Position numbers and translations under genes: made by a program. Below are positions 9,065 through 10,942 of a stretch of DNA of 64,000 bases, piece after piece. The DNA comes from Escherichia coli (GTDB lineage Bacteria; Pseudomonadota; Gammaproteobacteria; Enterobacterales; Enterobacteriaceae), in assembly GCF_003334305.1 (NCBI RefSeq), contig NZ_QOWS01000014.1; one strand, given 5' to 3'. The notes under the pieces were generated by a model. That model was given only the letters and a program-made list of their open reading frames with translations, had not been told where the DNA came from and did not search any database. The number at the start of each line of letters is the position of its first letter. Within the stretch, counting starts at the first letter, position 1.

Positions 9065-10942
9065 TTACGGTTCAGGGATACAAGCCACATTGCCATATTG
9101 GGGATGACGAATAATTGCCTGCGGATCAAGCGAGCGCGTCCTGTCCATTTGGATCAACCCGTTCTTCGCCATGACAAATATTTTTCTACCATCCGCTGAA
9201 AAACGAAGGTGATTAACGTAGCTGGCAGGATAAACGCCAATAATCTGCCCGGCATTAATATTGAGCAGGATGACATAACCTTGCAGGCCATATGACACCA
9301 ACGCTAAATATTGACCGTCCGGGCTAATACCCTCAACGGAATAAACGCTCCTGCTACACCATTGCGTCATAATGCTGGCTTGTTGATCCCCTACGCTTAT
9401 ACGTGAAATCCCCTGACTATCGGCAAAAATAACCTCGCCGTTTTCAGGTCGAAAACGCATCGCCGATATCGTTCCACGCGCATCACCTGCGGGAAAGTCT
9501 TCTTTCTGATGCGTGATGGTATTGATCCGCACGATGTTACCTCTGCCTGCTCCCGGAACCAGTAATGTTCTTTCATCCGGGGAAAGTGCCATAACCCAGG
9601 CGCCTGGTTTACCGCTCGTCCCCGTCCCGTCGTATTTCTCCAGCGGGATATCCGCCACATGCTGATAAGTCACCAGATCAATCGCTGACACACTATTACT
9701 GGTGCGATTCATCACCCAGGCTTTTGTGCCATCACGCGAGAGGATAAAACTGTCAGGATGTGCACCGGTGGTAATCGACTGAATAATCTCCCCTGTCGCC
9801 ACGTTAATGACCGATAACGCATTCGCTTCAAATGACGTCGCATAAATCAACTTTTCATCCGGGCTTAATGCCAGCGATCTGACGCCCTGATCTTTACAGC
9901 CACCACAATGTTTGACTGACTTTTCTTTCGCTATGGGCGCTGTAAAGGTATGCAGGATTTTCTTTTGTCCGAGGTCGAAAACAACAATGCTGTTGGTGTT
10001 TTCAATTGCGGCATACAACGTATTACCATCCCGACTGATCGCCATATCATGGATATCGGCAATCTCAGCGAGTAAATCACCACTGGCCTGTTCACGACTT
10101 ACCGGAGCGGATAATGTTTCCCTGAGGGCGTTGCGTTCCTCCGCTAACTGTTGTTTTTTTTGTCGTCGCTCTTGTTCAATCTCCTGCGGATAAAACGCTT
10201 CACGCAGGCTTTGCCTGACCTGTAAAACTGACTCATCCATCTGCTGCTGCGCAAGCCAGATAGCCCCGGTCAGAAGAAGACTGCCCGCAACAATAATCCC
10301 GCCTTCCGTAACGAGTCGGTTTTGCCCAGATAAACGCGCGCTCAGCCAACCCAACGCGCCACCCGCAATCAGGCCGCCAATGTGGCAAGCGTTATCTATT
10401 CCTGTTTGCCGGGCACCGTACAACAGTGTCAGCGCCACCATACCCAACAGAGTAAATACTCGCCGCTGGTTTTTATGGTATGTGCCCGTACCTGAAGCAA
10501 ACTGTGTTGCTATCGCTGCACCAGCTATTCCCAGAATCGCCCCGGATGCCCCAACGCTGATGACTATCTGCTCACTTTCGCGTAACGCATAACAGGCGCT
10601 GATGAGCCCACCAAAGACGCCGGAGAATAACCAGGTAATCAGGAGTCGCCATTTCCCCAGAATCTGTTCCGCCACGCCTCCCACGACCAGGAATGCAAAC
10701 ATATTCATCAGCAGATGAGAAACACTACTGTGCAGAAAGATACTGCTCAATAAGCGCCAGGGTTCACCCGACAAAGTAAGAGGCGCAACGTTTGCACCGA
10801 GATGGATAAGTGCGGATTGATCGACCTCTTCATAACTCATCCATTGTGCGAGATAACAAAATATCCCAATACAGAGTGCAAAAAGGATAAGGGTTATTGC
10901 GGGTAATTGAACATTTAACGGCTTAACCGAAGATGCAGACAT
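9065..10942 (-). CDS. Rhomboid-family intramembrane serine protease core fused to an extra TM helix, charged linker and seven-repeat beta-propeller (625 aa)
   Basis: ATG at 10942 with GGAAG about 9 nt upstream. N-terminal part has rhomboid motifs: WRLLSSIFLHSSVSHLLMNM, GASGAILG (Ser133), ACHIGGLIAGG (His187), then a seventh hydrophobic helix. C-terminal part has seven S-x-D-G-type repeats about 42-58 aa apart. Confidence 0.8.
   Translation of the reverse strand: MSASSVKPLNVQLPAITLILFALCIGIFCYLAQWMSYEEVDQSALIHLGANVAPLTLSGEPWRLLSSIFLHSSVSHLLMNMFAFLVVGGVAEQILGKWRLLITWLFSGVFGGLISACYALRESEQIVISVGASGAILGIAGAAIATQFASGTGTYHKNQRRVFTLLGMVALTLLYGARQTGIDNACHIGGLIAGGALGWLSARLSGQNRLVTEGGIIVAGSLLLTGAIWLAQQQMDESVLQVRQSLREAFYPQEIEQERRQKKQQLAEERNALRETLSAPVSREQASGDLLAEIADIHDMAISRDGNTLYAAIENTNSIVVFDLGQKKILHTFTAPIAKEKSVKHCGGCKDQGVRSLALSPDEKLIYATSFEANALSVINVATGEIIQSITTGAHPDSFILSRDGTKAWVMNRTSNSVSAIDLVTYQHVADIPLEKYDGTGTSGKPGAWVMALSPDERTLLVPGAGRGNIVRINTITHQKEDFPAGDARGTISAMRFRPENGEVIFADSQGISRISVGDQQASIMTQWCSRSVYSVEGISPDGQYLALVSYGLQGYVILLNINAGQIIGVYPASYVNHLRFSADGRKIFVMAKNGLIQMDRTRSLDPQAIIRHPQYGNVACIPEP

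Follow-up and report, generated by a model that had tools for sequence, protein, structure and literature searches.

A gene on the minus strand of the window, a stretch of 64,000 nucleotides of Escherichia coli DNA, encodes a membrane domain followed by a beta-propeller, and raises the question of what the segment between the two is and what it does. An earlier note on this DNA had described this segment as a charged linker, possibly a helical or coiled-coil stalk that could space the propeller from the membrane or mediate oligomerisation. We read it as an alpha-helical neck on the periplasmic side of the rhomboid protease Rhom7, most likely a monomeric semi-rigid spacer, and give this reading a probability of about 0.6.

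The Rhom7 ortholog and its domains

From N- to C-terminus, the product of this gene consists of a rhomboid core, a seventh transmembrane helix (TM7), the helical neck and a seven-bladed propeller:

9065..10942, minus strand: whole gene of the rhom7 ortholog, 625 amino acids plus stop codon (ORF list)
10328..10942, minus strand: six-TM rhomboid catalytic core, residues 1–205 (Pfam PF01694, invariant motifs, GlpG matches)
10244..10318, minus strand: TM7, residues 209–233 (hydropathy peak at 210–228; AF2 helix 209–233)
10109..10249, minus strand: compositionally biased peptide QQQMDES...RETLS, 47 residues, 232–278 (composition count)
10058..10114, minus strand: conserved junction, residues 277–295 (alignment columns; AF2 secondary structure)
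9068..10057, minus strand: seven-bladed YVTN/YncE-like beta-propeller, residues 296–625 (TIGR02276, Pfam, AF2, Foldseek)

Sequence comparison makes the 625-residue protein an ortholog of Rhom7 from Shigella sonnei (SSON_0610). It is near-identical to SSON_0610 (99% identity to the S. sonnei entries P0003 and P0007), keeps the Ser133/His187 numbering and has TM7 at 209–233; the catalytic pair and the seven-TM profile agree with published Rhom7 (PMC7232013). RefSeq labels the protein 'rhomboid family intramembrane serine protease' (WP_097343967.1) in an E. coli genome of 100% identity. The E. coli gene is flanked by lnt and gltI and is missing from K-12, and the neighbourhood in Klebsiella aerogenes is syntenic, with the homolog gene between the same two genes. 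No conserved partner gene emerged from the neighbourhoods in K. aerogenes and Pseudoduganella. An antisense ORF overlapping the neck region (9912..10193, plus strand) was also considered and set aside as a purely mechanical ORF without support.

In rhomboids, the dyad is formed by the GxSG serine in TM4 and a histidine in TM6, while HxxxN lies in TM2 and WR in L1. All of these motifs are present here (W62-R63, H76xxxN80, G131-A-S133-G134 and H187), and across the 23 homologs G131-A-S133-G134, H187, H76/N80 and R63 show no variation and W62 almost none. In addition, PF01694 matches residues 59–201 (E = 1.3e-27), and a sequence comparison with the PDB gave matches to GlpG. The domain profile, the catalytic dyad and the HxxxN and WR motifs thus place the protein among the rhomboid proteases (PF01694, MEROPS S54).

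Since TM7 crosses the membrane, everything downstream of it is periplasmic. This location of neck and propeller is predicted from seven TMs on the rhomboid N-in topology, from the K/R residues that, as read from the sequence, cluster at the cytoplasmic loop ends, and from four conserved C-terminal cysteines (Cys346/Cys349 and Cys529/Cys621 of the propeller). Self-cleavage of TM7 or of the neck is considered unlikely: TM7 runs N-in/C-out, and known rhomboid substrates are oriented the opposite way. Liu et al. 2020 proposed for S. sonnei Rhom7 that it has seven TMDs, with its C-terminal domain in the periplasm (PMC7232013). In the same study the enzyme was proteolytically active in the membrane, the S133A and H187A mutants were inactive, and TM7 together with the C-terminal domain was dispensable for cleavage of the model substrate (PMC7232013). 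From the 99% identity, intramembrane proteolysis is predicted for the E. coli protein as well.

The C-terminal domain shows a YVTN/YncE-like repeat profile far above the curated cutoff (TIGR02276, 58.4 bits vs 27.85) together with a seven-blade fold. Pfam propeller families match it from ~293 to 611, the AF2 model contains 7 x 4 strands, and the best Foldseek match is the YVTN propeller 1l0q (E = 8.8e-18), with G-beta and further seven-bladed propellers next. Ahead of blade 1 lies a junction with the pattern L-[S/P]-x-P-V-S-x-E-x-A286-x-G288-x-x-L291, in which A286 and G288 do not vary among 23 sequences. Its layout is a helix stop, a short helix (283–286) and a strand (289–292); from the order of strands in the model, this strand probably closes the propeller ring ('velcro').

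Composition, predicted helices and length of the neck

The neck occupies the segment between TM7 (~209–233) and the propeller (from ~289), where the earlier note had put its linker. The bias that it had described is evident in residues 232–278 when compared with the whole protein: charged residues reach 36% vs 16.5%, Gly plus Pro only 2% vs 12.6%, Gln 21% vs 5.6% and Arg 12.8% vs 5.1%. In the best 47-residue stretch, which starts at residue 229, 27/47 residues are D/E/K/R/Q, while shuffling gives 17.3 +/- 1.5 and at most 25, and 0/2000 shuffles attain 27. The protein's longest stretch without glycine (residues 227–287) also falls here. As to the limits that the note had set, 10235..10115, the start lies two bases off the frame (residue 236 begins at 10237), but the interval covers residues ~236/237–276 and coincides almost exactly with the AF2 helix 237–276 (10234..10115).

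In the AF2 models, a ~40-residue alpha-helical neck joins TM7 to the propeller. For E. coli, helices are predicted at 209–233 (TM7), 237–250, 253–276 and 283–286, and a strand at 289–292, with pLDDT 67–87 over the linker. Within the neck, the parts are as follows:

10193..10234, minus strand: neck helix 1, residues 237–250 (AF2 DSSP, pLDDT ~75–78)
10187..10192, minus strand: Tyr251-Pro252 break or kink (two-residue break in AF2; alignment columns)
10115..10186, minus strand: neck helix 2, residues 253–276, the most charged part, with EQERRQKKQQ (AF2 DSSP)

The confidence of helix 2 climbs towards the propeller (pLDDT 67 to 87). Ahead of helix 1, an N-cap-like motif, [S/D/N/T]-[E/D], is conserved at 236–237, and capping-like motifs are kept at both ends of the neck. 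The Tyr251-Pro252 pair is conserved in the homologs from Enterobacteriaceae and missing in distant ones. In the Pseudoduganella homolog P0049 (~24% identical), the model gives a helix at 208–230 and then a single unbroken helix at 236–275 (pLDDT 79–87). The idea of a helical stalk is supported by two independent models at pLDDT ~67–87, and disorder without helical propensity, the outcome that would have spoken against it, was not observed in either. These models were built on a shallow alignment (22–23 sequences, ~12.5 effective), and AF2 is prone to model sequences of this kind as long helices regardless of oligomeric state.

On the other hand, the relative placement of the domains appears loose. 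The models have pTM 0.59–0.63 vs a mean pLDDT of 82–84, and full-length AFDB homologs superpose at 20–25 A rmsd while single domains do so at 3–5 A. Low pTM and poor full-length superposition suggest that there is no fixed domain interface, which fits a tether.

The comparison among homologs (23 sequences, ~12.5 effective) likewise agrees with the earlier proposal, as the linker is present in 23/23 full-length homologs and its length is nearly fixed. From L239 to A286 the distance is exactly 47 residues in 19/23, a statistic that is based on ~12 independent lineages, and from the end of TM7 to A286 it is 52–57 residues in most of the 23. In distant homologs, identity within the linker drops to 5–17%, compared with 19–29% for the propeller and 32–44% for the TM core. 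That is, the length is conserved and the sequence is not, which is the only mildly notable property of the neck. Since the length stays fixed despite such low identity, the neck looks like a length-constrained helical spacer.

Further searches left the set of homologs unchanged. An exhaustive representative search with residues 202–625 yielded no full-length fusions beyond P0023, P0037, P0042 and P0043, a profile search with the full homolog alignment gave no further rhomboid-propeller fusions, and one with the TM6-to-blade-1 sub-alignment returned E. coli fragments only. The list from the representative search was dominated by giant multi-propeller YVTN proteins.

Coiled coil, docked arm or disordered tether

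The same long helix could be read as a coiled-coil stalk, in which two or three copies of Rhom7, or Rhom7 together with another protein, entwine through this helix and so give oligomerisation and a rigid stalk. The neck is rich in E/K/R/Q/L and glycine-free, and shows a recurrence of weak hydrophobic positions (266/267, 270, 274 and 277). Moreover, a helix of 40 residues that lacks a hydrophobic face and has few i/i+4 salt bridges may be unstable on its own, which leaves room for a partner. By analogy of architecture only, G-beta, whose N-terminal helix is in a coiled coil with G-gamma, is among the Foldseek matches. The heptad tests, however, do not support this part of the earlier proposal. 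Using home-made heptad, Fourier and salt-bridge scores, we obtained an a/d score of 0.55 (z = 0.4 vs shuffles, a crude measure), at the level of shuffled sequences, while the controls GCN4, Lpp and tropomyosin gave z = 1.9–4.1. The hydrophobic periodicity of 3.3–3.9 residues in the family profile was matched by 497/1000, 419/1000 and 887/1000 shuffles, and in single sequences it was not significant, with 0/23 exceptions (p = 0.06–0.96). No a/d repeat over at least 3–4 heptads was found in the neck, residues 256–265 (EQERRQKKQQ) lack any hydrophobic residue, and Pro252, in the middle of the neck, is conserved in enterobacterial sequences. We thus regard a coiled coil as unlikely.

Helix 1 deserves separate attention, as its hydrophobic positions 239, 242, 246 and 250 are conserved family-wide in the column hydrophobicity profile, and it may pack against something. 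This suggests that residues 237–250 could dock against the membrane surface or the rhomboid's periplasmic face, at L1 or the active-site opening, with the Pro252 kink setting the propeller directly above the active site; the neck would then be a lid or positioning arm and not a spacer. Two breaks agree with it, a conserved one between TM7 and helix 1 and the Tyr-Pro one of enterobacteria, and Liu et al. raise the possibility that activity or substrate recognition is regulated by TM7 or by the C-terminal domain (PMC7232013). In that work, however, removal of the C-terminal domain neither abolished nor reportedly raised activity on the model substrate (PMC7232013). For helix 1, 350/2000 shuffles reach its hydrophobic moment of 0.46, and the value for helix 2 lies within the shuffle range too; an amphipathic in-plane helix was rejected for this reason. 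In addition, the model of the distant homolog shows a single straight helix without a kink, and the domain arrangement differs between models (pTM ~0.6, 20–25 A rmsd at full length). Docking of helix 1 is therefore improbable in our judgement, much as the coiled coil is.

Finally, disordered linkers normally do not keep a fixed length, and a flexible, largely disordered low-complexity tether of no structural role, its Q/R/E-rich composition a product of linker drift, is very improbable: the 5–17% identity, the low-complexity composition and the rare in-frame deletions within the linker that certain E. coli alleles tolerate (of 1 codon, and one of 12 codons) would fit it, but the neck shows neither low predicted structure nor variable length, with helix predicted in two models, Gly/Pro nearly missing, 47 residues kept between the anchors in 19/23 homologs and the capping-like motifs retained.

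Proposed role and comparison with known systems

With these alternatives weighed, we prefer the monomeric semi-rigid spacer, since the neck is hydrophilic, has no consistent buried face and is nearly constant in length while its sequence drifts. After the six-TM core, TM7 would cross back to the periplasm and be followed by a short hinge (residues 234–236) and ~40 helical residues (237–276), kinked at Tyr251-Pro252 in enterobacteria and presumably unbroken in distant homologs. The helix would end at a conserved Pro-x-Pro-Val stop, from which the chain leads into the strand that opens the seven-bladed propeller. Up to ~60 A long if extended, the neck would fix how far the propeller stands from TM7 and from the periplasm-facing active site. 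We infer this spacer or ruler role from the features above. Against it speak the E. coli alleles with deletions in the linker and the only functional data, which are negative: a deletion that takes away the C-terminal domain leaves activity on an artificial substrate intact.

FdnH and HybA are tail-anchored respiratory subunits. The propeller would act as a periplasmic binding or regulatory module, for instance for the periplasmic domains of these subunits when orphaned. A bolder and quite doubtful version makes the neck a molecular ruler, whose 40-residue helix sets the height of the propeller (up to ~60 A) so that it probes partner coverage of the FdnH/HybA periplasmic domains. If true, orphan-subunit detection would be coupled to intramembrane cleavage, a manner of substrate selection not yet described for bacterial rhomboids. 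For the choice of substrates by these enzymes, the extramembrane domains of the 6+1 type are candidate determinants. For Rhom7, our analysis offers a testable map of TM7, hinge, fixed-length 40-residue neck, Pro-x-Pro-Val...Ala-x-Gly junction, YVTN propeller and two cysteine pairs.

At ortholog level, the protein is the same as S. sonnei Rhom7 (SSON_0610, UniProt Q3Z4D6; Liu et al., EMBO J 2020, PMC7232013), with which it shares Ser133/His187, seven predicted TMDs and a C-terminal domain after TM7. It has thus already been described, named and shown active, and the neck is an ordinary interdomain connector. That paper handles 'TM7' and 'CTD' as blocks; in its searched text 'propeller' occurs 0 times and the helical neck is not mentioned (PMC7232013), and our literature search found no paper on the rhomboid-propeller fusion or on the neck linker.

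As charged, glycine-poor interdomain helices, ER/K single alpha-helix (SAH) spacers (myosin VI/X, caldesmon) resemble the neck. However, dense E-to-K/R pairs at i/i+3 and i/i+4 were not found in it: opposite-charge pairs amount to 0.07 per residue (0.06–0.12 in E. coli segments, 0.02–0.24 in homologs), compared with 0.7–0.8 (0.73–0.82) in SAH controls, and the E. coli neck is Gln-rich while SAH helices alternate E and K. The G-protein beta subunit, like Rhom7, carries a long helix directly before a seven-bladed propeller, and G-beta chains are numerous among the top Foldseek matches (alignments of 360–379 columns). At 13–16% identity there is no sequence relationship, the propellers are of WD40 and YVTN type, respectively, and the G-beta helix pairs with G-gamma in a heterodimeric coiled coil, whereas no such heptad pattern was found in the Rhom7 neck.

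The nearest non-propeller relatives in the databases are 6+1 rhomboids with an extracytoplasmic TPR domain. Like Rhom7, Bacillus subtilis YqgP/GluP and other 6+1 rhomboids combine a rhomboid core, TM7 and an extracytoplasmic repeat domain, which in YqgP-type rhomboids is thought to bind protein or peptide ligands (PMC7231995). This domain is an all-helical TPR in YqgP/GluP and a propeller in Rhom7, and YqgP has in addition a regulatory cytosolic N-terminal domain that E. coli Rhom7 lacks. In the TPR-type relatives examined, TM7 leads almost directly into the helical domain, whereas in Rhom7 a separate charged neck of 40 residues and fixed length stands between TM7 and the propeller.

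Identity of Rhom7 and its locus

Window 8900-11400 is 100% identical to E. coli strain A7, and the window is E. coli chromosome. In strain A7, the ORF lies between lnt and gltI and is annotated as 'rhomboid family intramembrane serine protease'. Pfam assigns residues 59-201 to a rhomboid domain (E = 1.3e-27) and residues ~293 to 611 to beta-propeller families, and the NCBIfam YVTN repeat scores 58.4 bits, above its curated cutoff of 27.85. The catalytic residues are Ser133 and His187, numbered precisely as in the published Shigella sonnei Rhom7 (SSON_0610), and the window's protein shares 99% identity with S. 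sonnei sequences. That is, this protein is the already known Rhom7.

Rhom7 is an active protease with 7 TMDs predicted by Phobius, it is inactive as S133A or H187A, and on over-expression it cleaves the orphan FdnH and HybA subunits (Liu et al., EMBO J 2020, PMC7232013). An artificial substrate is still cleaved by Rhom7 without the C-terminal domain, or without TM7 plus the C-terminal domain (PMC7232013). Since catalysis on the model substrate survives the C-terminal deletion, the neck, i.e., the charged linker between TM7 and the propeller, lies outside the catalytic machinery. The propeller is nowhere mentioned in the text of Liu et al. (PMC7232013), and in our literature search no paper described a rhomboid-propeller fusion or the Rhom7 linker.

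The rhom7 locus varies among E. coli strains. In K-12 MG1655, IS5D takes the place of rhom7 between lnt and gltI, at least 80% of window 8900-11400 is covered in only 3231 of 5426 complete genomes, and short or split rhom7 ORFs are numerous in AFDB and among E. coli assemblies; these observations together suggest frequent loss or pseudogenisation. Alleles of rhom7 diverge unusually strongly for a chromosomal gene of E. coli. P0018, the largest of the 90% clusters with 8814 member sequences, shows only 93% protein identity to the window's allele, and other alleles show 91–95%. The K-12 annotation places the sRNA SroC between gltI and gltJ, and the matching spacer in the window is at ~12306-12474, between ORFs 11322..12305 and 12475..13215.

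Composition and predicted structure of the neck

Features of the Rhom7 ORF and of its neck (AF2, AlphaFold2 model; residues of the E. coli protein)
9065..10942, minus strand: Rhom7 ORF, 625 codons (ORF list)
10249..10109, minus strand: peptide QQQMDESVLQVRQSLREAFYPQEIEQERRQKKQQLAEERNALRETLS, residues 232-278 (found in the ORF)
Residues 234-236: break, hinge after TM7 (AF2)
Residues 237-250: neck helix 1 (AF2)
Tyr251-Pro252: two-residue break (AF2)
Residues 253-276: neck helix 2 (AF2)
Residues 277-282: loop (AF2)
Residues 283-286: short helix (AF2)
Residues 289-292: strand preceding blade 1 (AF2)
From residue ~299: propeller, 7 x 4 strands (AF2)

The earlier note had described this segment as strongly charged and low in glycine and proline, which is correct and beyond chance. 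Charged residues constitute 36% of the linker versus 16.5% of the whole protein, Gln 21% versus 5.6%, and Gly plus Pro 2% versus 12.6%; the richest 47-residue window holds 27 D/E/K/R/Q (17.3 +/- 1.5 in shuffles, 0/2000 as high), and the longest glycine-free run in Rhom7 is residues 227-287. The coordinates proposed for it, 10235..10115, do bracket residues 236/237-276, but their start is 2 bases out of frame, because residue 236 begins at 10237.

Within the linker codons (window 10249-10109), rare E. coli alleles (clusters of 1–2 sequences) show in-frame 1-codon losses in the Gln/Lys runs (Q232, K262, Q264), and another allele, P0019, has a 12-codon deletion at residues 245-256. Either genuine variation or errors of assembly could explain these deletions. 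A 93-codon antisense ORF at window 9912-10193 (+) overlaps the linker-coding region, and nothing beyond the mechanical ORF list supports it as a gene.

Hydropathy and AF2 give 6 core helices plus TM7 at ~209-233. Rhomboid cores are N-in/C-in, as established for GlpG; with TM7 added, the rest of the protein is therefore periplasmic. This agrees with the K/R cluster at the cytoplasmic helix ends, read off the sequence, and with the conservation of four Cys in the C-terminal part, C346/C349 and C529/C621. The first pair (Cys346-Gly-Gly-Cys349, window 9896-9907) is a CxxC (HCGGCK) in E. coli, is spaced wider in distant homologues, and lies in a loop with pLDDT < 50. C529 (9356-9358) and C621 (9080-9082) are also nearly invariant across the family. 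These residues might form disulfides or belong to a redox or metal site.

For the E. coli protein, AF2 gives a model with a mean pLDDT of 82 and a pTM of 0.59; block by block along the linker, pLDDT is 78, 75, 67, 81, and 87. In the Foldseek search against PDB, the archaeal YVTN propeller 1l0q ranks first and hydrazine synthase beta second, and the hits further down include numerous G-beta subunits as well as other seven-bladed propellers. The region of strand 289-292 carries an invariant A286-x-G288-x-x-L291 motif, and from the strand order we infer that this strand would close the propeller ring.

Conservation of length across homologues

Full-length rhomboid-propeller proteins are rare. The searches found E. 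coli/Shigella alleles at 90–100% identity, a second tier at 48–56% that includes a Klebsiella aerogenes ortholog at the same lnt/gltI position, and about a dozen sequences at 22–32%, including Pseudoduganella. Structure search adds full-length homologues annotated as Paraburkholderia and Phytopseudomonas, as well as a Variovorax match that is shorter and weaker.

The earlier note had proposed a helical stalk, to be examined by structure prediction and by linker length across homologues. Both lines support it: the helix appears in two AF2 models, and the linker is present in 23 of 23 aligned sequences. In the model of the Pseudoduganella homologue P0049 (~24% identical), the neck is a single unbroken helix (236-275, pLDDT 79–87), so helicity is a family feature, and the Tyr-Pro kink is confined to the enterobacterial branch. 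Conserved capping-like motifs stand before ([S/D/N/T]-[E/D]) and after (L-[S/P]-x-P-V) the neck helix.

In the distant group, identity to the E. coli linker falls to 5–17%, with 19–29% for the propeller and 32–44% for the TM core. The distance from the TM7 end to A286 is 52–57 residues in most sequences. The invariant A286 and, close to where the helix begins, the position matching E. coli V239 align well enough to serve as anchors. The count between them is exactly 47 in 19 of 23 homologues; the exceptions in the 23-sequence alignment A1 (E. coli residues 239-286) are +3 (P0043), +11 (P0045), -7 (P0051), and -10 (P0055). In this small sample, +11 and -7 are close to whole helical turns, which would preserve the angular phase of the propeller.

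Probable role of the neck and comparison with known systems

The best reading is that the neck would be a monomeric, semi-rigid helical spacer of set length between TM7 and the periplasmic propeller, of 40 residues and up to ~60 A if extended. For the propeller, binding of a ligand or of a substrate's periplasmic domain is probable. Predicted helicity, presence in all homologues, and conserved length are the results obtained here, and the spacer role and the propeller function are what we infer.

The earlier note's suggestion of a coiled coil that mediates oligomerisation is not supported, and we regard it as improbable. Its simple a/d heptad score is 0.55 (z = 0.4 versus shuffles), compared with 0.70–1.00 (z = 1.9–4.1) for GCN4, Lpp, and tropomyosin controls. 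Fourier analysis of hydrophobicity gives no significant 3.3–3.9-residue peak in the weighted profile of the family (power at least as high in 497/1000, 419/1000, and 887/1000 shuffles) or in any single sequence (p = 0.06–0.96). The hydrophobic moments of helix 1 (0.46) and helix 2 (0.29) are within the shuffle range, and opposite-charge i/i+3 and i/i+4 pairs reach 0.07 per residue (homologues at most 0.24), compared with 0.7–0.8 in ER/K single-helix controls. Taken together, these results indicate that the neck is not a canonical coiled coil, an ER/K single helix, or a strongly amphipathic helix.

Just as unlikely, in our estimate, is a neck acting as a docked lid or positioning arm. Because some hydrophobic positions are conserved (239, 242, 246, 250, and less strongly 266/267, 270, 274, 277), the neck may pack partially; the predicted inter-domain geometry is not fixed, with pTM ~0.6 despite high pLDDT, and full-length AFDB homologues differ from the model by 20–25 A rmsd, compared with 3–5 A for single domains. 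A disordered tether, which would fit the sequence drift, is less probable still given the helix in both models.

Overall, the Rhom7 linker is a genuine, ordinary structural feature, and the sole new detail is its near-invariant length against free sequence drift, which rests on ~12 independent lineages and makes a ruler-type role testable. The arrangement of a helix and seven blades resembles G-beta in outline only. The architecture parallels the YqgP/GluP-type 6+1 rhomboids, where the extracytoplasmic domains are TPR; in the sampled TPR-type relatives, however, the helical domain follows TM7 almost at once and there is no separate neck, while Rhom7 has one.
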